Positions 4,388-40,984 of a stretch of DNA of 63,318 nucleotides are shown here, piece by piece (positions within the stretch are counted from its first letter, which is position 1; every line of letters begins with the position of its first letter). The stretch spans positions 1 through 63,318 of the IMG/VR virus record IMGVR_UViG_3300037993_001113. One strand, 5' to 3'. The notes below the pieces were generated by a model. It was not told where the DNA came from. It was given only the letters and a program-made list of their open reading frames with translations, and did not search any database. This stretch comes from a virus (taxonomy: Duplodnaviria; Caudoviricetes). Made by a program: the position numbers and the translations under genes.

Positions 4388-6639
4388 TGAGATTGTTAAT
4401 TGGTTTTCTTATAGCAGCGGCCGCTTATGCTCAGTCCTACTGCCGGGTGTGGAACTGGGCTGAGCAGGGTAACCAGACCATTGCGGTTCTCGGGTATCAG
4501 TCCTCTCCGACAACGCCGGTCCAGGCGTCCTACCCCAACGCCACGATTACGGTTTTCACCAGCGGATCACAGAGCATCGCTTCAGCGACATACGTGAGCG
4601 GAGGGTCATTCACCGGTGCCCAGGGTTCCACAGCCACGGTCGCGTTCCTGGGTGTTCCGTTATCCGCGGGCAGCGGAGCCATCGGAACCCTGACACTGAC
4701 GGGAACCAACACGGTAGCTCCGGGTACGCCGATCGCCATCAATGCATCGGGCAGCGGGTTCCTCAACCCATCGGTCAGCGGTGTTTTGAGCAACGGGACC
4801 GCAACTGCTTCGGGAACCATTGTTTTGAAGAGTGTGATGACCGGCACGCTGGCAACGATCTATTCGGACAGTCTTGGAAACCCACAAACGAACCCGTTCA
4901 CTCTGACTGCCGGAAGCACAGCCAGTGGCAACGGCTACTCATTCTTCTACGCGCTGTGCGGGGCGCATGTAGATGTTCAGATTTCAGGAACCGGGGTTCC
5001 CGTACCCTTCACTCTGGGAGACATAATCGCTGGCGGAGGAGGAAGCAGCGGAGGAAATTCGGTAACGATATCATGTCCCGCTACAGGTGGTGATGTGGCT
5101 CCGGCAATCAATGCCGCGATCACTTACATTCAATCAGGCAGTGGCAGAGGTGGAGTGATATCGTTTACGGGAAGTTCGCAGACATGTACCATTGGCTCAA
5201 CCGTTGTTATTCCTGCTGGCATCACGCTGAATGTTCAGAGCGCCCAACTATCCAGCACGATAAATCCGGTGGTTCAGTTGGGCGGAAACTATTCCGCACT
5301 GGTCGGAGCACCTGGGGGAAGCGCTGAAATAAGTTCTTCGTGCACAACCGGGCGAGTCGTGTTCATTTCAAGCAGTATACCGAATAACGCAGTCTGGCAT
5401 CCCGAGGTCTCCAATCTGCACATTGACGTAACGGGAAGCGCGGGAAGCTGCAATGGTCTTGAAGCACAATCCTGGTACGGACATTATAACGATCTGTACA
5501 TCACACACTCCGGGGCTTCAGGAGGACTGGGCACAGGCAATGCCGTAGTGCTGGAGGATCAGGACCCGTCAGGAAACGGCGTCGGAGCTTATCTGAACAA
5601 TTTCACGAACCTGCGAGCCGGAGATAATCCCGGAGGCGTTCCTATGGGCTTCGGAACGGGGATTTTTCTGCACAATGAAAACGCCGCATGGGGAGTCACC
5701 CAAACCAATTTCTTCAACACATACTCGACTTGGAACAACGTGGCGCTGAAAACGCAGGCTACCACCAGCGTGCAGGTTCGCTGGACCAGCTTCTTCGGAG
5801 GAGGCCTGTCCTACAGCAACAGTGACAATGTGCAGTTGTCAGGCAGCGACCAGATTTCGTTCCATGGCGTGGACAACGAGGGCTCTGCAACCGGATACGG
5901 GATCAACTGCAACGGCTCAAACGGTGAGTTGTACGCAGGATTTGGCAGTTCCTTTGGAAATAACTCACTGGGGACCTATGCGGCAGCGTGCAGCGATACG
6001 GACGGTTTTGGTAAATCATGGGATGCCAGCGATCATGCGGGAGTTGACGAAGAAACGATCCTGTTCAACGGAAGTCTTCAGCGGCTGAAAATGCAAAATC
6101 TGGGTTACACCACTCCGACCGAGATCGGCTACCACTGGACCGGGAATATTTGGGAAATCGGAAATAATCTTAAGCGCATTTCAAGCACCCAGGCGAACCT
6201 CATTGATCCAACGCAGGGCGGCGGTATTCTTTCCATGGGTCTGGGTTCGCTTTGCTGGTATACGGCAACCGCCGGAAGCAATCCCAGAACCCTCACGCAG
6301 GTGTGGTGTTCGGCTCCGAATATGGTTGCCTCTTCCCTGCAATCGACTGGTCTGACGACTATCGGAACAAACCTTCAATTTGGAGCGGTTGGTTCTCATA
6401 TTCAGGAGGATGGGGCAAACGCCGACGCATCAGGGAAGTGCGGCATCAGCGGGACCACCTGCACCTATACTTTCAATACGCCCTATACGTCGAATGCTCC
6501 GGCATGTACGGCAAGCGATGAGAACAATCCGGCTCCCGTTCAGGTTGCGGTGAGCACGACGGCGGTTACGTTCACAATCGGGACCGGTGGAGCAAGCGGA
6601 GATAAGATTGATTTCCATTGCTTTGGATACCCGAATTAG
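4384..6639 (+). CDS. Tailspike-like beta-helix protein with N-terminal signal peptide
   Basis: MMRLLIGFLIAAAAYA-Q leader. 'DVAPAINAAI..G.GGVI' is a pectate-lyase-3-type cap followed by N/G/S-rich beta-helix coils. Confidence 0.65.
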   Translation: MMRLLIGFLIAAAAYAQSYCRVWNWAEQGNQTIAVLGYQSSPTTPVQASYPNATITVFTSGSQSIASATYVSGGSFTGAQGSTATVAFLGVPLSAGSGAIGTLTLTGTNTVAPGTPIAINASGSGFLNPSVSGVLSNGTATASGTIVLKSVMTGTLATIYSDSLGNPQTNPFTLTAGSTASGNGYSFFYALCGAHVDVQISGTGVPVPFTLGDIIAGGGGSSGGNSVTISCPATGGDVAPAINAAITYIQSGSGRGGVISFTGSSQTCTIGSTVVIPAGITLNVQSAQLSSTINPVVQLGGNYSALVGAPGGSAEISSSCTTGRVVFISSSIPNNAVWHPEVSNLHIDVTGSAGSCNGLEAQSWYGHYNDLYITHSGASGGLGTGNAVVLEDQDPSGNGVGAYLNNFTNLRAGDNPGGVPMGFGTGIFLHNENAAWGVTQTNFFNTYSTWNNVALKTQATTSVQVRWTSFFGGGLSYSNSDNVQLSGSDQISFHGVDNEGSATGYGINCNGSNGELYAGFGSSFGNNSLGTYAAACSDTDGFGKSWDASDHAGVDEETILFNGSLQRLKMQNLGYTTPTEIGYHWTGNIWEIGNNLKRISSTQANLIDPTQGGGILSMGLGSLCWYTATAGSNPRTLTQVWCSAPNMVASSLQSTGLTTIGTNLQFGAVGSHIQEDGANADASGKCGISGTTCTYTFNTPYTSNAPACTASDENNPAPVQVAVSTTAVTFTIGTGGASGDKIDFHCFGYPN

Positions 6640-8853
6640 ATGAGAGCTCGAATTACGATCATGCAGCTTTACCTTCTTCCCGGAAATTTCACGCGCCCTG
6701 ACAAACTGCATTGTCTGCGATTGTGGTTGTCAGCAGCGATTGTTAGCGCATCTCTCTGTGCTCAGAATGCAATCCCGGTAGTGTCGGCAGCCAATCCCGT
6801 ACAGGAGGGGCAGCCGTCAATCGGGGCCACCTGCATCATTCCCTCGCCTTTCTATGTAAACCTGAACACCGGCGCAATGACTTCGTGCCAGCACGTGCTC
6901 AGCGGGTACGGCGTGTGGACGGGGATATCCGGTTCGGGGAGCATTTTCGCCTCCTACCAGTTCGGAACGCAGGCGGCGCTTACCGGGACGGGGCTGTACC
7001 TGCAAACCACTTACCCGGCGATGTTCACGACCACGCAGACCGGCTCGGGAACGTCAGGAGCGCCCTATGTGGACGCGATCACGCTCACGTCTCAGAACGC
7101 TAATCAGGTGTTTGCCGCCCCGAACGGCTCTGCCGGTGCTCCTGGATTCAGGGCGCTCGTTGGCGCGGACCTTCCATTGCCTACAGCCAGTACTATCGGC
7201 GGTATCGAATCAATTACGGAAGCCACCCATAACTGGATTTCGTATATCGATACTTCCGGCGTTCCGCATCAATCTCAACCGGCCTGCGGTGACCTAAGTA
7301 ACGCGGGCACCGCGTGTCAGTCTAATACCTCGGCATTCCAGGCTGCTGCTGCTTCTGCGGTTGACCTTGGCGGTTCCTCCACTCCATTCCGCTATCTCTA
7401 CCTATACGGCGGGGGCTCGTTCGGCTCGAATGCCTATCAGTTTCTTGGGACCCCTACAGCCGCGCGAACCTTCACGCTCCCGGACGCAAACTCGAATCCA
7501 ATCCAGGGAATCGCCAACCCGAGCGATACGGAAGTTGTTAACTACATCGATACCAGCGGCGTTCAACATCGCATCGCGCAAAGCGGCGGGGGCACCGTCA
7601 CCGTAGTAGGCTCCGGGTCGCTCACAAACACGGAATGCGTCACGGGCGGCGGGACAACCACAATCCAGACACCAAGCGCGAATTGCACCGTGGACTCCAG
7701 CGGGAACCAGACTGTCAACAGCCTGCACACCGGCGGTGCTTCGCCGACCGACAGCGGCAGCGCGGTTTTCAACGGGATATCGAGCGGCGCAGTCGGTATC
7801 GGAGCTGCGGACGCGGCGGGAGCGTCAATCCTCTACGTTCTTCCGAGTACGAACGGGCTGGCCAATCAGGCTCTTATCGACACCGGCGCGACAACCTGCC
7901 CGACGCTTCCGGCGGGGTCTCCGACAGTCTGCCACCTGCTGCAGTTTGTCACGACGGTCGCCTCGGCCACGACCGCAACTAATGTGGCCGGCGGTGCGGT
8001 GGGTTCGCTTCCCTATCAAAGCGCAGCAGCAACTACACTGTTTGTTTCCGGCAATACGGCGGCTACCGATGAGGTCCTTGTGAGCCATGGAACCGGTTCA
8101 GCCGCGCAGGCACCTACGCTCACTAATACCCCCGCACTTGGCGGGGCCAATTTCACAGGAGTTCCGCTTGCCAGCATCATCAACGGCACGCAGGGTGGTT
8201 TGGTTGCGGGCGGCGGCAGTGCGGCTGCCCCTCAGGTTGGCGCGGCGGGAACAGCGAAGCAACTTGCACTATCGGGCGGCACGGGAGCACCGACATTCAT
8301 CGACTTCCCTGAACGCTACATGATCCCGGCGGCGAACTGCAACAACGCAACGGCTGGAGCAGGGTGGTCTATCGGATCGGGCGGCACGGTGACCTGTCGC
8401 GCGGGCACCAATAATCTCGGCGGGTTCGTATCAATCTCAGACACGGCGGGAACGTTCGCGCAGTTCATGGTGAGTATCCCGGCAGATTGGGACACGAGCA
8501 CATTGCCATATGTCGGTGTTGGATTCGAGGTTGCCAGTGACACTACCAGCGGGCACACCGTCATTCCTGAAGTGGCGATCTCCTGTCCAGGCGCAGTGAA
8601 CGGCACGGTTTCTGATGACCACGCACTGACCGGATATCTCGCGCTTACCACGGTCACTCTCGGCGGGAGCGCCGTTGCGCACGGGTTCTACACGACCTCA
8701 ATTCAGCTTGATTCGACGCGCATGAGCGGATGCGTGGCAGGTGGGTTCATGATCGTCTCGATAGGCAGGGCCACGGATACAGCAACGGGGGTGACCGGGT
8801 TCTACTATGCCGATGTGACCTTCCCGAGACTGCTAGCTGTACAGGCTAATTAA
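6640..8853 (+). CDS. Tail fibre-like G/T/S/A-rich protein (start uncertain; hydrophobic leader ending SLCA-Q)
   Basis: Fibre-type repeats (NQVFAAPNGSAGAPGFRALVGADLP); lies in the tail module. Confidence 0.6.
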   Translation: MRARITIMQLYLLPGNFTRPDKLHCLRLWLSAAIVSASLCAQNAIPVVSAANPVQEGQPSIGATCIIPSPFYVNLNTGAMTSCQHVLSGYGVWTGISGSGSIFASYQFGTQAALTGTGLYLQTTYPAMFTTTQTGSGTSGAPYVDAITLTSQNANQVFAAPNGSAGAPGFRALVGADLPLPTASTIGGIESITEATHNWISYIDTSGVPHQSQPACGDLSNAGTACQSNTSAFQAAAASAVDLGGSSTPFRYLYLYGGGSFGSNAYQFLGTPTAARTFTLPDANSNPIQGIANPSDTEVVNYIDTSGVQHRIAQSGGGTVTVVGSGSLTNTECVTGGGTTTIQTPSANCTVDSSGNQTVNSLHTGGASPTDSGSAVFNGISSGAVGIGAADAAGASILYVLPSTNGLANQALIDTGATTCPTLPAGSPTVCHLLQFVTTVASATTATNVAGGAVGSLPYQSAAATTLFVSGNTAATDEVLVSHGTGSAAQAPTLTNTPALGGANFTGVPLASIINGTQGGLVAGGGSAAAPQVGAAGTAKQLALSGGTGAPTFIDFPERYMIPAANCNNATAGAGWSIGSGGTVTCRAGTNNLGGFVSISDTAGTFAQFMVSIPADWDTSTLPYVGVGFEVASDTTSGHTVIPEVAISCPGAVNGTVSDDHALTGYLALTTVTLGGSAVAHGFYTTSIQLDSTRMSGCVAGGFMIVSIGRATDTATGVTGFYYADVTFPRLLAVQAN

Positions 8854-34797: not shown

Positions 34798-36078
34798 TTA
34801 CGCTTTGCCGCTTTGCCGCTTTGCCGCTTTCTTCGCAGGCTTCGCTGTTGTGTGCCGCGCCTGCGCTTCCTCCACCAGCACGGCAATCCGGTTCCAGTGC
34901 GCGATAACATCCTTGCCGGCTGCGTCGCCGCGCGTCCACGCGGTCTTCAGCACGGCGCAGAACGACCGCATGATATCCGGGTAAGCGGCTGAACACAGCG
35001 AGTCCAGCAGGCAGATAAGATCGGCAACGGTACGGGTGACCGCATGCGGACCTTTGCCGGTGTCGCGGTCGCGGGTGGCCTTAAGTTCACGGGCAGCTTC
35101 GGCGATCTGCGCGCGGGTGGGCACAACGGGCCGGTCAGGCGCTTCGGCCTCCGCGCGTCCGGTTTTTTCCTTTGCGCGTTCAGCCTTTTTCGTTGCGCGT
35201 TCAGCCTTTTCCTTTTCCCGCCGCGCCGCGCTTTCCCGGCGCAGCTGCGCCATCCACTCTTTCCGTTGCGCCGGGGTACGCTCCGCGGCAGGTACCGCCT
35301 GGGTAGTTTTGCCTGTCCCGGCCGGCTTACCGGATACTGTTTGCCGCGCATTAGCGCCCGCTGGCGTGTTCGCGCCAGGCTTCCCCGTGGTTTGGTCCGG
35401 GGACGGCTGCGCAACCGCTTCCCGCTCGGCTTTCTGCACAGCCAGTTCGACTACCGCGTCCGCCTGCGCCGGTTCGACGTGGGTGAGCGTGTAGAATGCG
35501 GCATCCGCGCCCATCCTGCCGTCCGCAACCAGTGCCAGCAGACTGTCGTACACGTCCTGCGCCATACCCTCCGGTTTGTGCAGCAGTTTGTCGCACTGGC
35601 TGACGGTTGCTCTGGACACCCCGCAGTACTGCGCGACCTCGCGGGTGCCGGTCCAGCCGTGGCGCTCGCGCACCGCCCGGAACAAATGCGCCATCTGGAC
35701 GGCGGTGTAACCCTGCCGGTCTAAGTTGGCGCGAACCGCCAGCCGCAGCGGGTCGCCGCCGGTTGCTCCGTCCACCACGCACTCCAGCGGAAACGGCGTG
35801 CCGTCGCCTTCGATCGTCAGCGCGGCAGTCAGCCTGCGCCGCCCGTCGAGCACCCGATGCTGCGGGTCTACGATCAGCGGGACAAGCTGACCTTCGCTCA
35901 GCAGCGAACGCTTAAGCGCTTCGAGCCGGCGGGCTTCGTTTGCGGCCGGCGGGCCGGGCCTTGCTTCCGCTGTTTCCGGCAGCAGGCCGATTTCGGACGG
36001 CGCGAGCATTATTGTCGCTCTTGGCGCGGGCAGCGGCGGGTATGTTTCCCCGCCTAGTACGTATTCGACTCTGGGCAT
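34798..36078 (-). CDS. parB: ParB/Spo0J-family CTPase with HTH
   Basis: SLLSEGQLVPLIV, VLDGRRRL, ANLDR, HTH REVAQYCGVSRATVSQ; SD GGAG. Confidence 0.82.
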   Translation of the reverse strand: MPRVEYVLGGETYPPLPAPRATIMLAPSEIGLLPETAEARPGPPAANEARRLEALKRSLLSEGQLVPLIVDPQHRVLDGRRRLTAALTIEGDGTPFPLECVVDGATGGDPLRLAVRANLDRQGYTAVQMAHLFRAVRERHGWTGTREVAQYCGVSRATVSQCDKLLHKPEGMAQDVYDSLLALVADGRMGADAAFYTLTHVEPAQADAVVELAVQKAEREAVAQPSPDQTTGKPGANTPAGANARQTVSGKPAGTGKTTQAVPAAERTPAQRKEWMAQLRRESAARREKEKAERATKKAERAKEKTGRAEAEAPDRPVVPTRAQIAEAARELKATRDRDTGKGPHAVTRTVADLICLLDSLCSAAYPDIMRSFCAVLKTAWTRGDAAGKDVIAHWNRIAVLVEEAQARHTTAKPAKKAAKRQSGKA

Positions 36079-36382
36079 CGGGGGTTTCTCCTGGCAGTTC
36101 GGACGGCGTTGTTCCCGCCGGTTTGTGCAATGCCGCCACCTGCGCAAGGTCCCAGCCGAGGTAGGCGGCCAGCCGTTCGGCAAACCGCATCGACGGCCGG
36201 GCCGCGCCGTGCAGCACCCGCGACAGGTAATCGGGCACTACCTGCAGCGATTCGGCCATGGCGGCGATGTTGTAGGGACGCCACGGTCCCTTGGGGGGTT
36301 GTCCGGTGCGCGACGGCGCGCGGCGCGGCACCAGCGGGGATACCGGAGGGAGCGCGGCGGCGGAATGTACGCGTTTGCTCAT
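35912..36382 (-). CDS. XRE/Cro-like HTH regulator
   Basis: IAAMAESLQVVPDYLSRVLHGAARPSMRFAERLAAYLG. Confidence 0.72.
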   Translation of the reverse strand: MSKRVHSAAALPPVSPLVPRRAPSRTGQPPKGPWRPYNIAAMAESLQVVPDYLSRVLHGAARPSMRFAERLAAYLGWDLAQVAALHKPAGTTPSELPGETPDAQSRIRTRRGNIPAAARAKSDNNARAVRNRPAAGNSGSKARPAGRKRSPPARSA

Positions 36383-36418
36383 ACACGTTCGGTCCCCGGC
36401 GGCGCGTGCGAACCATTG

Positions 36419-36448
36419 CTGCCTCTGCCCTGCTGTGCTTCCGGGAGC
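36419..36448 (-). promoter_or_regulatory. 30-nt leader element, copy A
   Basis: GCTCCCGGAAGCACAGCAGGGCAGAGGCAG on the - strand is identical to 54740-54769 on the + strand. Confidence 0.7.
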
Positions 36449-36486
36449 AACGGCCCGCATGACAACGCCTGCCGGGTACGCTACGA

Positions 36487-36597: not shown

Positions 36598-36752
36598 CGG
36601 GAGAGAAATATAAATTTTATCCAAATGTCGCAACCCTAAGAAGAAGAATGCGCGCGCGCGGGCGCGCCGGGCGCGGTAAGAGAATCTGTATAGCTTTCCT
36701 TTTTCTTATCTTAGGGATGCGACATATGGATAAATAATTTTTTTCTCTCCCG
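36598..36752. repeat. Imperfect 44-bp AT-rich inverted repeat (candidate origin)
   Basis: Arms at 36598-36641 and 36709-36752 with a (GC)n-containing spacer. Confidence 0.8.
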
Positions 36753-36776
36753 CTTGTTTTGTTGTATCCTGTTGTT

Positions 36777-37601
36777 ATGAAAGCACCTTATCGAAGCGTG
36801 AAGAAAAGATCGGACCTGTTTTACGTCGGTCAGCGCCTGGGTAAGGACAGCATGCTGCAGGTCAGCGGGTCGGTCGATCCGCTGTCATGGCGTCAGGTAA
36901 TCTGCCTGTGCGACTGCGGAAACACCGTTGTGCTGCCCTATCAGCACGCTTACGCGGGAAGGTTTTCCTGCGGCTGCAGACGCCGCATACGGCAGGATTG
37001 TGCCGATCATGCCGGGTTACGGGTGCACAACGGCGCCGGAAATAACGGCGAAGGACGCACGCTGACGGTATTGTGCCGCGATGAAAAAACCCAGTTGTGG
37101 ATTTACCTGTGCGAGTGCTGCGCCGCAACTTTCGATGTGCCGCGCGGAATGGAGCGCGGTGTGCGCGGCAGCCTGCGCGGCATCGCCGGCGAAACCTGCC
37201 CTAACTGGATTCCGTTTTACCCGAACGGCGGATGCGGTCTGAGCGATGCATACTGGGAACGTTACGGGCGGCCCGTGGAAGCCGATTACGGACTGGCCAT
37301 GCACAACCCGCCGGGGCATAACAGCGCCGATAAAGACTATACCTGGGCGGCGCCGTTTTACAAACCGGAACGGGTGAAGCGCGGCAGTGGCGGCGAAGTG
37401 CTCGGGGTATACGGGCTGCCGACCGAGGGGACGCCGCCGGGGCCGCGGCCAACCAGCGTATGGGCGCACCCGGAACTGCCGGATCTGCCTGCAGCAGTCT
37501 TTGCAACGCCGGTACCCGAAGATATGGACGGAATGGCTGCAGTGCTGGCGGAAATAGACTGGATCGCGCCGCCCGTGCCGGAGCGAAGCGGACGGATGTA
37601 G
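36777..37601 (+). CDS. Cys-rich protein resembling the N-terminal repeats of AP2/HNH endonucleases
   Basis: CLCDCGN..SCGC and CECC motifs; only + strand gene in the - arm; no clear HNH core. Confidence 0.55.
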   Translation: MKAPYRSVKKRSDLFYVGQRLGKDSMLQVSGSVDPLSWRQVICLCDCGNTVVLPYQHAYAGRFSCGCRRRIRQDCADHAGLRVHNGAGNNGEGRTLTVLCRDEKTQLWIYLCECCAATFDVPRGMERGVRGSLRGIAGETCPNWIPFYPNGGCGLSDAYWERYGRPVEADYGLAMHNPPGHNSADKDYTWAAPFYKPERVKRGSGGEVLGVYGLPTEGTPPGPRPTSVWAHPELPDLPAAVFATPVPEDMDGMAAVLAEIDWIAPPVPERSGRM

Positions 37602-37657
37602 TCTCTACAAACGCAAACGGCGGGTGAGGGGTTGGCCTTTCCACCGCATCGCCCGGA

Positions 37658-37942
37658 TCACTCGAACCCGATCCAGTCGCCAGCGTTCGCTTCCAGCCCC
37701 GTGCGTGTGTACACTTCCGTTGTGCGTACGCTGGCGTGTCCGAGCGTTGCCTGTATCGTTTCGAGCGGGCAGCCTGCGTTGCGGGCAAGCCGTGCATGAG
37801 TGCGGCGCAGGTCGTGCGGCTGCAGGTCCGGTATACCGATGGCCGCGCCGTAACGCCGCACGATGTCGCGTACTGCGGCGGGAGACAGCGATCCGTTGAT
37901 AGTGCCGGTGGAAGTGATACTGCGGAGGATATAGTCAGGCAT
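37658..37942 (-). CDS. Tyrosine recombinase, C-terminal half
   Basis: PHDLRRT, LGHAS, TTEVY; its ATG overlaps the upstream stop (ATGCCTGA). Confidence 0.85.
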   Translation of the reverse strand: MPDYILRSITSTGTINGSLSPAAVRDIVRRYGAAIGIPDLQPHDLRRTHARLARNAGCPLETIQATLGHASVRTTEVYTRTGLEANAGDWIGFE

Positions 37943-38336
37943 CGGGCTTCGCTGTCCATACCGCATACTGATCTTTAGTAAGCTGTACATTAGCAACCAT
38001 ATAGCGGGAGTCCTTTACGTCTGCGGTGTACGAGCAGTGCGAGCAGCCCGAGCAGCGCGAGCAGCGCGAGCAGACCGAGCAGTCCGAGCAGCGCGAGCAG
38101 TCCGAGCAGAGCGAGCAGTCCGAGCAGCCCGAGCAGTCCGAGCAGAGCGAGCAGCCCGAGCAGTCCGAGCAGTCCGAGCAGCCCGAGCAGTGCGAGCAGC
38201 CCGAGCAGTGCGAGCAGAGCAAGCAGTCCGAGCAGCCCAAGCAGCCCGAGCAGTCCGAGCAGTCCGAGCAGGATAGATCTGCTTTAACCGCTACTTCCCG
38301 TTTTGTTGCCGCTGTCATAATTTCGTCGATTGTCAT
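37935..38336 (-). CDS. (CxxC)n Cys-repeat protein
   Basis: About 26 tandem 9-bp units coding C-S-x; SD AAGGA. Confidence 0.75.
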   Translation of the reverse strand: MTIDEIMTAATKREVAVKADLSCSDCSDCSGCLGCSDCLLCSHCSGCSHCSGCSDCSDCSGCSLCSDCSGCSDCSLCSDCSRCSDCSVCSRCSRCSGCSHCSYTADVKDSRYMVANVQLTKDQYAVWTAKPDA

Positions 38337-38357
38337 TGGTTTATGTCCTTAATTTCA

Positions 38358-38419
38358 TTCATCCATTCGGTTAGTATTTCCGCCGTCCAGACGGGCACTG
38401 CGATTGTGCGCGTGCGGCC
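38358..38419 (-). repeat. 62-bp direct repeat, copy 1 (duplicate of the recombinase N-half 3' end)
   Basis: Identical to 39029-39090. Confidence 0.95.
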
Positions 38420-38568
38420 CGGGCCGCGCCGTGCAGCACCTCGCCGATAGCGTCTTCACGCGCCTGCGCGTAATCGTATGACGGGCCGGACCGGATCGCC
38501 GTTTCGCGAACCTGCAGAATGCGTTCGAACAATTCCACAAGTAAAACAACATCGCGTCGCGTCAACAT
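38371..38568 (-). CDS. Small chimeric ORF
   Basis: SD AAGGAG; the 3' part is built from HTH-gene and recombinase-gene sequence. Confidence 0.5.
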   Translation of the reverse strand: MLTRRDVVLLVELFERILQVRETAIRSGPSYDYAQAREDAIGEVLHGAARAARAQSQCPSGRRKY

Positions 38569-38581
38569 CGCGCTGTCTCCT

Positions 38582-39016
38582 TTATCCGTTGATTTCGTAA
38601 TGTATGCTGATCGACGTAGTTAGCAGACACAGCACCAGTGCGGTTGTGCCATCCGGCGGATAGGATGACAGGATCATGTTGCCTTTGTGCTCTCCGCACA
38701 CCGAAACACACCAGGTACCTGCAAAAAACGATGCAGTGCCTTTAATATCATGCGATGTGACACCGGTGTGCTTGTCCGCGTGTGGCGTAGCGATCTCGAA
38801 CGGTTCTGCCAGTTCCGGTATCTCGTGGTGCCTGAACCATAAATACAAACTGCGGATCGCACCGCGTTTTACATTAGGTTCGAGCATTACCTCCATACGT
38901 CCCCAGCGTTCGTGCTTCAACTGCGGAATGGGTATACGGTAGTCCCATCCGTACTTTTGGTCCTGATATTGTGCCGCATCGCGGAACACCACAGGCTTAT
39001 CGGCTTTCTTTGTCAT
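38582..39016 (-). CDS. Hypothetical protein
   Basis: ATGA-coupled to the recombinase N-half; SD AAGGAG. Confidence 0.65.
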   Translation of the reverse strand: MTKKADKPVVFRDAAQYQDQKYGWDYRIPIPQLKHERWGRMEVMLEPNVKRGAIRSLYLWFRHHEIPELAEPFEIATPHADKHTGVTSHDIKGTASFFAGTWCVSVCGEHKGNMILSSYPPDGTTALVLCLLTTSISIHYEING

Positions 39017-39648
39017 CTTTCAAGCTCCTTCATCCATTCGGTTAGTATTTCCGCCGTCCAGACGGGCACTGCGATTGTGCGCGTGCGGCCGCCCTTGCCG
39101 GTCAGATTGGCTATCAGCATACGGCCGCTGCGGGTGACAATGTGATCGGTGGTAAGCGCGCAAGCCTCGCTCCTGCGCAGGCCGCAACCCACCAGCAACG
39201 CCAGCACCGCGCGGTCGCGTTTGCCCTGTAAAGTGCTGCCATCCGGCGCCGTCAGCAGCGCGTAAGCCTGCTCCGCATTGAGCCAGCAACCCGTTTTTGT
39301 GCCGCGCACGGGCCTGGCGCGGATACGCTCTATTTGTGCTGCGGTTGTTTGTGCGATCCACCCGAGGTCGGCGGCTTCGCCTGCCAGCCGTTTGAGCGCC
39401 GCCAGCGCCTGGTTCAGCGTTGCAGCGCCTTTACCCTGCGCGGCGAGCGACCGTAAATGCCGTTGCACGGTTTCGCGGTCGAGCGTTGCATTGCCGGCGC
39501 GCATGTAACCGGCGATCTGTGCCTTGTAACTGCGCTGCGTGGACGGCGACAGGCCGGTCAGCGCTGCGGCGATACAGCGGGCCGGAAGATCGGTGGCCGC
39601 AGGCGTGGCGGTCACGGTTGTCACGGCATTCGCAGTCGCGGTTGTCAT
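39013..39648 (-). CDS. Tyrosine recombinase, N-terminal half (core-binding domain + catalytic R and K)
   Basis: STQRSY, RDRAVLALLVGCGLRRSE, GKGGRTR; stops before the HxxR box. Confidence 0.88.
   Translation of the reverse strand: MTTATANAVTTVTATPAATDLPARCIAAALTGLSPSTQRSYKAQIAGYMRAGNATLDRETVQRHLRSLAAQGKGAATLNQALAALKRLAGEAADLGWIAQTTAAQIERIRARPVRGTKTGCWLNAEQAYALLTAPDGSTLQGKRDRAVLALLVGCGLRRSEACALTTDHIVTRSGRMLIANLTGKGGRTRTIAVPVWTAEILTEWMKELER
39029..39090 (-). repeat. 62-bp direct repeat, copy 2
   Basis: Identical to 38358-38419. Confidence 0.95.
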
Positions 39649-40349
39649 TGGCTTTTCTGCGGTAACCGCGCCTTCCAGAAACCGTTGCATACGTCTGTAC
39701 TGCAACCCATGAGCGCTACGGTTACATCCTGTCCGTCTTCCGTTTCGGCTTTGAACATGGCCGGTCTGTACGCAATGCTGTCGCTGCCTGCGCGTTTCGG
39801 CGTTTCAAAGTACACGGTCACCTCGCGTACGGGTTTGTTCGTACCGGCATCGGTCACCTTTTTGAGCAGTGCGCATACCTCGTACAATTGTTCGACCGCG
39901 AAGCTGCAGGCGAACGCGGCATTGCGCGGGTCGGATATTACGCGATCGATGTCCGGGAAGCGGTTGCCGGTTTCGTTCGCTTCCGCGCATTTGACAACAG
40001 TGCTGTTAGTACCATCGCTTACGGCAAGCGCGAACCCGTCCGGCGACTGCGTAACGGCGGCGCACGCAAGCACGGGGATAGTGTTTTTGGCGGGTATCGC
40101 CCCGGCCAGCATTTTTGCGTCGCCGGCGGGCAGCAGCAGGTGCGGAAATATGTCGGTCGCGGTTGCTTCGCCGTTACCGGGCACCGGGAACGATTCGGCT
40201 TTCAGCTCGGGCACGGCTGCAATCCGCGCGAGCTTTATACCATCGGTCGCCGCGGTGTACTCCGGGGCGATCAGTATGTTGGAAAGCCTAAAGCTGTTTT
40301 GCTCCGTTGAGCAGAACGCGGCTACCGCGAGGTTGTGTTTATTCAGCAT
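39645..40349 (-). CDS. Beta-sliding-clamp-like protein
   Basis: AATDGIKLA and RFPDIDRVI motifs resemble DnaN domains; SD AAGGA. Confidence 0.55.
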   Translation of the reverse strand: MLNKHNLAVAAFCSTEQNSFRLSNILIAPEYTAATDGIKLARIAAVPELKAESFPVPGNGEATATDIFPHLLLPAGDAKMLAGAIPAKNTIPVLACAAVTQSPDGFALAVSDGTNSTVVKCAEANETGNRFPDIDRVISDPRNAAFACSFAVEQLYEVCALLKKVTDAGTNKPVREVTVYFETPKRAGSDSIAYRPAMFKAETEDGQDVTVALMGCSTDVCNGFWKARLPQKSQ

Positions 40350-40530
40350 CGGTTCCTTTCCTGTCGCCGAACCATGCACTGGACAGCCTTGTATCCTGAC
40401 CGCGCCCCCGCTGGTGATCGGTCCAGTAGCTTACGCCGTTAACGGCGCCCCACAGCGTATCGCGTGCGGTTACAAGATCGCTGCCCGGTGAGCTTAAGAT
40501 TGCTTCGAGCTGCCGTACCCATGCTGCCAT
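40339..40530 (-). pseudogene. C-terminal fragment of a DUF932-like protein
   Basis: TLWGAVNGVSYWTDH..TRLSSAWFG; only 63 aa. Confidence 0.55.
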
Positions 40531-40984
40531 AACCTAACAGGCAAGTCAAGTATATAATGATGTCAATAGCGAAAGTATTTGTACAAGCGGCGAAACGGTA
40601 AGGCAGGTAAACCGACAGCTGGCACAACAGGCAGCCAGGCACATTGCAGCCAAGCACAACGGGAGCAGGATGTTCAGCGAAACGACGGGCGAAGCCCGGC
40701 GTAAGCTGCACAGACTGCGACCTATAGCAGCAACCGTGTAAGCGCACCGCAGGCCGCAGGCGACAGCAGACCTTGCAACATGCAACATCGCTTGCAACCC
40801 GTATGCGCATCGTGCTACGAATTAACAGGTTCGTGCTACGGCAGTGAGCCTGTTGACCCGTTGCGTATCGACGGTAAGGCAGCGGCGCAGGCGGCAATAA
40901 AGGGCACTTATTTGCGCACATCAGGTGGGAAAGGGTATGCGCGGCAGCCGGCAGGGACGCAAGCCGTGCGCACACATACACGCA

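Follow-up and report, generated by a model that had tools for sequence, protein, structure and literature searches.

The window analyzed here, the complete 63,318-base IMG/VR virus record IMGVR_UViG_3300037993_001113 (Duplodnaviria; Caudoviricetes; CheckV completeness, 100%; without end repeats), carries a tyrosine recombinase gene in two pieces. Five open reading frames (ORFs) lie head to tail on the minus strand. The recombinase N-half (39013 to 39648, 211 amino acids [aa]) contains a SAM-like core-binding domain and the first part of the catalytic domain and ends in EWMKELER. It is followed by three passengers, namely, ORF144 (38582 to 39016, 144 aa, no known family), ORF65 (38371 to 38568, 65 aa), and ORF133 (37935 to 38336, 133 aa, a protein of Cys-Ser-x tripeptide repeats), and then by the recombinase C-half (37658 to 37942, 94 aa), which contributes strands beta4-beta5, the H-x-x-R motif, a further His, and the Tyr nucleophile. 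The first-pass annotation of this DNA had described a recombinase split by genes lying between its halves, and the coordinates and ORFs agree with that description. It had also counted three genes in about 1.07 kb; the ORFs, their coordinates, and a gap of 1,070 nt between the halves stand, while the coding status of ORF133 is less sure, because this ORF is built of repeats and is crossed by open frames on the opposite strand.

In three of the five ORFs, the start codon overlaps the stop codon upstream, as read from the sequence and as previously claimed for the N-half and the C-half. The N-half start overlaps the stop of a 244-aa upstream gene as ATGA, the ATG of ORF144 overlaps the N-half stop, again as ATGA, and the C-half ATG overlaps the ORF133 stop as ATGCCTGA. 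The ribosome-binding site of ORF144, AAGGAG, lies inside the tail codons of the N-half. ORF144 and ORF65 are separated by a 13-nt spacer with an AGGAG motif 8 nt ahead of the ORF65 ATG. A promoter and terminator scan of positions 37300 to 40600 found nothing over the chance level, which lends weak support to a single transcript for the five ORFs.

Both halves match the Pfam profile PF00589 above its curated threshold (27.1 bits), and they cover complementary parts of its 172 positions: the N-half aligns with positions 2 to 85 (E = 7.7e-12; 45.8 bits) and the C-half with positions 104 to 167 (E = 2.1e-12; 47.6 bits). These are the only two PF00589 matches in the whole record. The N-half additionally matches the SAM-like core-binding domain PF02899 (E = 8.9e-5; 23.1 bits, with a cutoff of 22.3). 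The catalytic domain, which in tyrosine recombinases normally belongs to one polypeptide, is here divided between two ORFs 1,070 nt apart. We take the catalytic residues to be R158, E161, and K185 in the N-half and H43, R46 (H43-x-x-R46), H69, and the nucleophile Y78 in the C-half, going by the family motif and by alignment to XerA. The N-half residues are invariant in 19 split N-halves, and the C-half residues are invariant in 38 stand-alone C-halves, including that of the window. When aligned with full-length relatives, the end of the N-half and the start of the C-half fall in one short loop, and at most about five loop residues are absent, in line with the earlier expectation that little or nothing is lost when the halves are joined.

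The split recurs in related phages

A protein search with the N-half returned 46 proteins, of which we looked closely at the 23 best (44 to 100% identity). Seventeen of these, the window's included, are 203 to 242 aa long and end at one shared column, just past a conserved W-x-x-E; the tails beyond it are short and mutually different (LER, IREVEECN, Q, L, LKKENS, and ISE). The other six are full length (297 to 327 aa) and continue through a loop, A-G-x-x-x-G, into Y-L-L-R-S-I, which is the exact point at which the window C-half (MPDYILRSI) starts. The corresponding C-half search yielded 37 other stand-alone proteins of 88 to 161 aa with 60 to 78% identity. Their called starts, usually of the form M-K/R-L-L-R-S-I, lie at most 12 residues from the first conserved strand (LLRS) in 32 of the 38 C-halves and at most 5 residues from it in 26. 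One member of this set, P0080 (P and L numbers are our labels for proteins and loci), resembles part of an intact gene. For several N and C proteins, the source contigs have matching lengths (64,030, 42,791, 3,535, and 1,808 nt), which suggests that they are pairs. A C-half profile search of a representative library gave 11 matches with E values of ≤1e-30, four of 119 to 142 aa and seven of 231 to 417 aa; this library is useless as a census because it is clustered at 50% identity and contains metagenome fragments.

For loci with DNA, two IMG/VR scans were classified by tblastn with both halves. The first (40 loci) comprised 5 split loci (L003, L004, L005, L008, and L011), 22 loci contiguous in one frame, 1 with a frameshift within the N part (L029), 11 distant ones without a C match, and L022, an N-half without a C match. 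The second, made with a C-half profile (78 loci), comprised 71 contiguous loci, 1 without an N part, and 6 split loci, the same five plus L205. L022 is a further split locus: its N-half ends in KGKNQ and a stop, two coupled ORFs (89 and 76 aa) come next, and the contig then runs out ahead of any C-half. The split is therefore found in at least seven other viral contigs, six with both halves plus L022, and the relatives that the first-pass annotation had proposed to search for, with the same split and different cargo, do exist. The cut is not always at the same residue: in L008 it lies about 15 residues further on, with an N-half that includes GKLLRGLKGETAQ before its stop and a C-half that starts with MTASLAPSTV. 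As this places the L008 split in the beta4-beta5 turn, it is an independent event.

Split and intact loci share their surroundings. The window, L003, L005, L205, and in part L004, together with the intact L006, have the same neighbor genes in the same order: a convergent ORF280 homologue, a helix-turn-helix (HTH)-like ORF, a ParB-like protein, a 436-aa protein, and a helicase. These split and intact phages are one phage group. Contigs with relatives of the recombinase are often 62 to 64 kb long (63,561, 63,203, 62,933, 62,337, 64,030, 63,003, and 62,510 nt), which suggests a coherent group of ~63-kb phages.

Outside viral contigs, we surveyed the best 80 of 207 matches in bacterial genomes, mostly metagenome-assembled genomes of Acidobacteriota with at most 48% identity. 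Sixty were contiguous in one frame, 11 were frame-changed (one of them, L086, with 433 extra nt), and 9 had no downstream C match. Among the best 80 of 499 metagenome contigs, 66 were intact, and the closest two (L123 and L138) were too short to reach the C-half. No close relative of the N-half was found among GenBank phages, the best of 11 records having <35% identity.

Passenger genes differ from locus to locus

The halves are 200 to 1,070 nt apart. Outside the window, a single ORF fills each gap, and in the six loci concerned the passengers are 268, 195, 67, 88, 111, and 82 aa long. The C-half starts overlap or abut the stop of the last passenger. In most loci, a ribosome-binding site for the passenger (AAGGAG or GGAG) is present within the last codons of the N-half, which accounts for the short and variable N-half tails. 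The 11 passenger ORFs show no mutual similarity (0 pairs at E values of ≤0.05), and, except for one paralogue in L022, none has a second occurrence in the loci retrieved. In L022, a partial paralogue of the first passenger (89 aa; 70% identity) lies on the same contig, about 1.9 kb upstream (5684 to 5851 and 7651 to 7920); at least this passenger is a gene that duplicates within its own phage. The G+C content of the passengers is below that of the halves in six of seven loci. The exception is L004, whose 195-aa passenger is an Ala-rich repeat protein, with a 46-nt tandem repeat (1586 to 1780) encoding Ala-rich AARAADAAAYAAA units.

We scanned 8 of the 11 passenger ORFs against Pfam and PHROGs, leaving out those of L205 (82 aa) and L022 (89 and 76 aa). 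The only matches were that of ORF133 to phrog_15341, a family of unknown function (E = 5.8e-13; possibly compositional), and weak ones of the L004 passenger to DUF6931 (E = 0.0064, below threshold) and phrog_38757. No endonuclease family was matched by any of the eight, although a novel endonuclease may be among them. ORF144 gave no match of ≥0.9 in the ESM Atlas and none with a TM score of ≥0.5, and it had no relatives in the viral-contig scan. In six of the seven loci where both halves are present, no shared repeats of at least 12 nt flank the cargo, in a search that did not extend to degenerate sites.

Selection on the halves and phylogeny of the split

Pairwise NG86 comparisons were made on the seven loci with both halves, and the values reported are for the 10 pairs among the window, L003, L004, L005, and L205. 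For the C-halves, the proportions of replacement (pN) and silent (pS) differences were 0.21 to 0.28 and 0.59 to 0.75, respectively, with a dN/dS ratio of 0.07 to 0.24; for the N-halves, they were 0.28 to 0.44 and 0.66 to 0.81, with a dN/dS ratio of 0.11 to 0.29 where dS was computable and not saturated. As dS is near saturation, these ratios are rough, but the contrast between silent and replacement changes is plain all the same. Across the five closest split loci, identity to the window is 59 to 76% for the C-halves and 40 to 56% for the N-halves. Judged from these comparisons, both halves are under purifying selection. The outcome that had been named as evidence for simple inactivation, with all relatives intact and the halves evolving neutrally, is not what we see: the split recurs, and both halves are constrained.

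On a quick maximum likelihood tree of the N region (71 rows; 191 columns), most split forms and a few intact ones fall in one poorly resolved group. The split state changes at least seven times on this tree, and at least three of the changes are forced by strongly supported branches. L011 pairs with the intact L017, and L022 pairs with the intact L027 and L031. A constraint placing the 22 rows split at the main site in one clade was not rejected by the approximately unbiased (AU) test (p-AU = 0.669), and the constrained tree had the higher likelihood. The data are compatible with one old origin of the split in the main group, followed by long maintenance, and at least two or three further independent splits exist. 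That the split is real, conserved, and selected is very probable.

A 65-nt duplication between the passengers

The 3′ end of the window N-half is present twice. A 65-nt direct repeat (98% identity; 62 nt exact) has copy A at 39026 to 39090, in the last ~20 codons of the N-half, and copy B at 38355 to 38419, between ORF144 and ORF133. In the recombinase frame, copy B continues into its own tail, EWMNEIKDINQ, and a TGA that overlaps the ATG of ORF133; by tblastn it is 84% identical to N-half residues 186 to 210. Together with its tail, it spans 38333 to 38419 and looks like what is left of an earlier N-half end whose passenger was ORF133. The 671-nt block of ORF144 and ORF65 would then be a later arrival, brought in together with a second N-half end. 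The last ~16 codons of ORF65 lie inside copy B, in a frame other than that of the recombinase, and the end of this ORF is probably chimeric or truncated. The duplication had been missed by the first-pass annotation and, as we interpret it, shows that the passengers accumulated in two steps. It is most economically explained if two related phages with different passengers recombined unequally.

ORF133 itself is built on at least 24 tandem 9-nt repeats (37977 to 38298) that encode (Cys-Ser-x)n. A 22-nt string, CCGGGCCGCGCCGTGCAGCACC, occurs both at 36197 to 36218, in the HTH-like ORF (35912 to 36460; motif VLHGAARP), and at 38420 to 38441, in the 3′ part of ORF65, where it directly adjoins copy B. 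The shared string may reflect microhomology that served the rearrangement or may be due to chance. It also explains a candidate 2.2-kb deletion variant, suggested by a loose end at 38419 in run X4, which we rejected.

The window sequence was listed in 24 peat or wetland sequencing runs, none of them an RNA run, and we compared the assemblies of four independent runs. Contigs from all four contain the N-half, ORF144, ORF65, and C-half stretches, cover the window in 28 to 30 of 30 bins, and differ from it by one single letter outside the tandem repeat. The repeat run at 37977 to 38298 shows raised depth and many loose ends in the four runs, which points to similar repeats in other genomes of the same samples. 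The contigs end at the 62-nt repeat, and for the order on either side of it we rely on the original assembly. They gave no joints, but because they stop at this repeat and lose rare variants, a joined or cassette-less form could escape them.

Position of the cut in the fold

The intact relative P0022 was modeled with AlphaFold2 (mean predicted local distance difference test [pLDDT] score, 85.7). The model has strands at residues 184 to 187, 190 to 197, and 203 to 207, a helix at 210 to 223, a loop at 224 to 228, strands at about 229 to 234 and at 240 to 243, and a helix at 246 to 259. The main split falls in the loop at 224 to 228, between the helix at 210 to 223 and beta4, and L008 is cut at the turn joining the two strands that follow this loop. 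By sequence, the closest solved structures are of the XerA type (4a8e and 5hxy), and the intact P0020 aligns with 4a8e straight across the split region (E = 9.2e-13).

We then cofolded the halves, each supplied as an alignment, together with three controls. The score was 0.87, compared with 0.00 for the best control; this mark is reached by 58 of 80 solved complexes and by 2 of 110 mismatched pairs, a calibration that is rough for alignments of our own. The pLDDT of the partner was at least 77, and at least 91% of contacts agreed between runs. In the model, the first strand of the C-half (residue 5) lies on N-half residues 165 and 166, and the C-half helices lie on residues 120 to 170. Such a pass may simply mirror likeness to solved intact recombinases.

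Neighboring genes and an inverted repeat

The 244-aa gene upstream of the N-half (39645 to 40379, minus strand) belongs to the same leftward gene string. It has weak PHROG matches to a DNA polymerase processivity factor (phrog_947; E = 4.4e-7) and to a RusA-like family (phrog_3007; E = 3.7e-4), and it had no tblastn match among the related loci compared. On the other side, ORF280 (36759 to 37601, plus strand) is convergent on the C-half. It is Cys rich, with a weak PHROG match to an HNH endonuclease (phrog_374; E = 1.5e-4), and is present as two or three tandem partial copies in L003 and L006 by tblastn. Since its homologues adjoin split and intact recombinase genes alike, ORF280 is not tied to the split.

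A 44-nt inverted repeat (arms at 36598 to 36641 and 36709 to 36752; 84% complementary, A+T rich, with a 67-nt spacer) occupies the intergenic region between the HTH-like ORF and ParB module on one side and the convergent ORF280 on the other. It is a candidate operator, parS site, origin, or recombination site of the split recombinase.

Interpretation and alternatives

We favor the reading that this recombinase is a naturally fragmented "gene in pieces", a noncovalently assembled two-chain enzyme whose permissive loop is a hotspot for passenger genes, and we give it a probability of roughly 60%. Foreign ORFs were inserted in a surface loop of the catalytic domain, the one that links the helix after beta3 to strand beta4. 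The N chain keeps the core-binding domain, Arg-I, Glu, and the beta-hairpin Lys, and the C chain keeps beta4-beta5, H-x-x-R, His, and the Tyr nucleophile. The five ORFs are probably carried on one transcript, and their translation may be coupled through the passenger ribosome-binding site in the end of the N-half and through the C-half ATG that overlaps the stop of the last passenger. The two chains would fold together, without a covalent bond, around one active site, and it is reasonably probable that the halves do work as such an enzyme. Its job might be integration or multimer resolution, as the gene adjoins genes for ParB-like, helicase, and methyltransferase proteins.

In the simplest account of the hotspot, insertions elsewhere in the gene would be lethal to its function and hence unseen, and once a split is present, the conserved halves would provide flanking homology through which coinfecting relatives exchange passengers. 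The loop behaves as an in-gene hotspot, with passengers turning over between related phages. The window would hold two stacked generations, the older ORF133 and the later 671-nt block of ORF144 and ORF65, and its 65-nt duplication would be the footprint of a passenger exchange between relatives. This agrees in part with the first-pass annotation, which had proposed a recombinase assembled in trans with its own gene as a cassette insertion site: the conserved split, the selection, the invariant residues, and the differing cargo favor the two chains, and site-specific entry of cassettes finds no such backing. Its other proposal, a switch that depends on DNA rearrangement, is unsupported: there are no flanking repeats able to restore the gene, and the C-halves have conserved start codons of their own.

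Several points weigh against the two-chain reading. The reading offers no mechanism for the repeated landing of cargo inside the gene and not between genes, and no recombination target site was identified. Expression, assembly, and activity are inferences from the sequence. Purifying selection on both halves would also fit some way of restoring one chain, and the roughness of the dN/dS ratios is to be borne in mind. Many of the stand-alone halves in the protein databases come from short contigs and were read without genomic context. Intact forms (P0010, P0013, P0022, and L006, as well as P0019, P0020, and P0021) sit among the split ones in the poorly resolved tree, and the failure to reject a tree with a single origin does not establish that tree; if the split had several origins, part of the divergence between loci would predate the splits. 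The cofolding pass is to be expected for the halves of a known fold and adds little, as with so many solved structures of this fold it would indicate likeness and not binding.

An insertion of foreign ORFs normally kills a gene, and the halves could be decaying relics of a dead recombinase; some bacterial relatives do look degraded (11 frame-changed and 9 without a C match among the best 80 of 207). Against such inactivation, each of the seven loci readable at both halves has them as intact ORFs, no catalytic residue varies among the 19 N-halves or the 38 C-halves, the C-half dN/dS ratio is 0.07 to 0.24, the C-halves mostly start at the first conserved strand, and the split persists across lineages that are ~50% diverged. 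This conservation largely refutes inactivation, which we regard as very unlikely. The same purifying selection would be expected if a single chain were restored by DNA excision, RNA splicing, protein trans-splicing, or ribosome bypass, and introns, inteins, and bypass elements are known in phage genes. A group I or group II intron was rejected after a permissive Rfam scan (E values of up to 1) that found nothing in 37658 to 39648 and no intron or ribozyme in 37000 to 40000, where the sole match (E = 0.51) was outside the locus. The fragments of split inteins are about 100 aa (intein-N) and 35 aa (intein-C), and the N-half tails (1 to 31 aa, mostly ≤10) and C-half leaders (median, 3.5 aa) are too short for them; there were no Pfam matches to intein domains either, and a split intein was likewise rejected. 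With cargo that consists of 200 to 1,070 nt of unrelated coding sequence and C-halves that have their own start codons, restoration of one chain appears quite improbable. It is also unlikely that only one half is in use, such as an N-half that binds DNA or regulates, while the other is kept for another reason or is a recent relic. The N-half has a complete core-binding domain and could bind DNA alone; on the other hand, the C-halves are better conserved than the N-halves (59 to 76% versus 40 to 56%) with invariant catalytic residues, the N-half keeps its R, E, and K, and the 94-aa C-half, which in the model supplies strands and helices to the N-half subdomain, is unlikely to fold alone.

The recombinase might instead capture cargo site specifically at a site in its own gene, as circular cassettes, in the manner of SSV-type integrases or integrons. 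The cargo does differ from locus to locus at a nearly constant position, the 671-nt block is flanked by the 65-nt direct repeat as the integration of a circle would leave it, and contigs of the four runs that break at the repeat are compatible with a free circle and an empty site. However, the repeat is equally explained by unequal recombination between two related phages, it is absent from the junction of ORF133 and the C-half, and the other six loci have no direct repeat of ≥12 nt around their cargo (no search was aimed at short, degenerate core sites). Insertions that lie elsewhere or in different lineages, namely, those of L008 and of the separately placed L011 and L022, are more readily explained by selection for a permissive loop than by a fixed att core. 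We therefore consider self-capture unlikely. A bolder combination with the two-chain enzyme, in which a clade of soil and peat phages would use the loop of its only recombinase gene as a gene capture platform, passenger translation would gate the synthesis of the C chain, and capture would proceed by the recombinase at a site in its own coding sequence or by homology-driven exchange among coinfecting relatives, as an in-gene analogue of the integron, strikes us as doubtful. Finally, the 62-nt exact repeat and the tandem 9-nt repeats are hard for assemblers, and the contigs of the four runs do break there; as these contigs otherwise match the window and the same architecture is present in at least seven other viral contigs from other samples, an assembly artifact or chimera is extremely unlikely.

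Comparison with known systems

The fold and catalytic motifs of the halves match those of XerC/XerD and XerA (4a8e and 5hxy), which, unlike the recombinase described here, are single polypeptides. Integrons consist of the integrase IntI, the attI site, and cassettes that bear attC sites and lie beside an intact intI gene. Like an integron, the present locus combines a tyrosine recombinase with a variable array of promoterless passenger ORFs on the same strand; unlike in an integron, the passengers lie inside the recombinase gene. We rejected an integron because the integrase gene is interrupted and no repeats of ≥12 nt bound the passengers in six of seven loci, with degenerate sites not searched for.

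Three further systems described in the literature resemble the locus in part. In the SSV-type suicidal integrases of archaeal viruses and plasmids, the att site is within the ORF, and integration separates the gene into two inactive pseudogenes, one at either end of the element (Badel et al. 2020, PMC7253208). Here, too, a tyrosine recombinase gene exists as an N part and a C part. Unlike in the SSV type as described there, the halves are 0.2 to 1.1 kb apart in N-to-C order in a virus genome, and they are complete, coupled ORFs with signs of purifying selection. Adjacent halves in this order and under such selection rule out an SSV-type suicidal integrase. Apart from the SSV type, no natural two-gene tyrosine recombinase was found in a search of the full-text literature, with most subscription journals and supplements outside its coverage. 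If the chains assemble, this would be the first natural two-gene tyrosine recombinase within the literature searched.

A man-made counterpart is Cre split between K244 and N245 (beta4/beta5), which was reported to have near-wild-type activity in E. coli and Arabidopsis without dimerizing peptides (Rajaee and Ow 2017, PMC5633763). As in split Cre, the natural cuts are in a loop of the catalytic domain. When mapped onto Cre by the order of secondary structures, and not by residue alignment, the L008 split is in the same hairpin and the main split is one loop earlier. Unlike the engineered split in that report, those described here are natural, conserved, and tied to passenger genes. If our reading is true, evolution has repeatedly hit the same permissive loop as the engineers of split Cre, and the natural split points would be self-assembling ones that could serve recombinase tools. 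It would also be a case of passengers building up and being replaced within a phage gene that looks essential, as opposed to between genes, which has a bearing on the spread of phage accessory genes because the conserved flanks give homology for exchange. There is also a warning for annotation: pipelines label such halves as truncated integrases or pseudogenes, which would mislead predictions of the lifestyle of the ~63-kb peat phages.

The closest parallel is the nrdA gene of Aeromonas phage Aeh1, which the mobile endonuclease gene mobE divides into nrdA-a and nrdA-b; the two NrdA polypeptides assemble noncovalently and share one active site, with no splicing (Crona et al. 2011, PMC3045599). 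In both cases, an insertion has broken the gene of a phage enzyme into two ORFs with a further ORF between them, and there is no splicing element. Assembly has been shown for NrdA and is what we infer for the recombinase halves. In Aeh1, the tails are essential interaction domains, whereas the insertion tails here are very short. The enzyme here is a tyrosine recombinase, no endonuclease family was matched among the 8 of 11 inserts scanned, the inserts differ per locus and can be stacked, and the split is clade-wide and arose more than once. What is new relative to the Aeh1 type is the enzyme class, the clade-wide recurrence with several independent origins in neighboring loops, and the diversity of stackable passengers that, where tested, match no endonuclease family.

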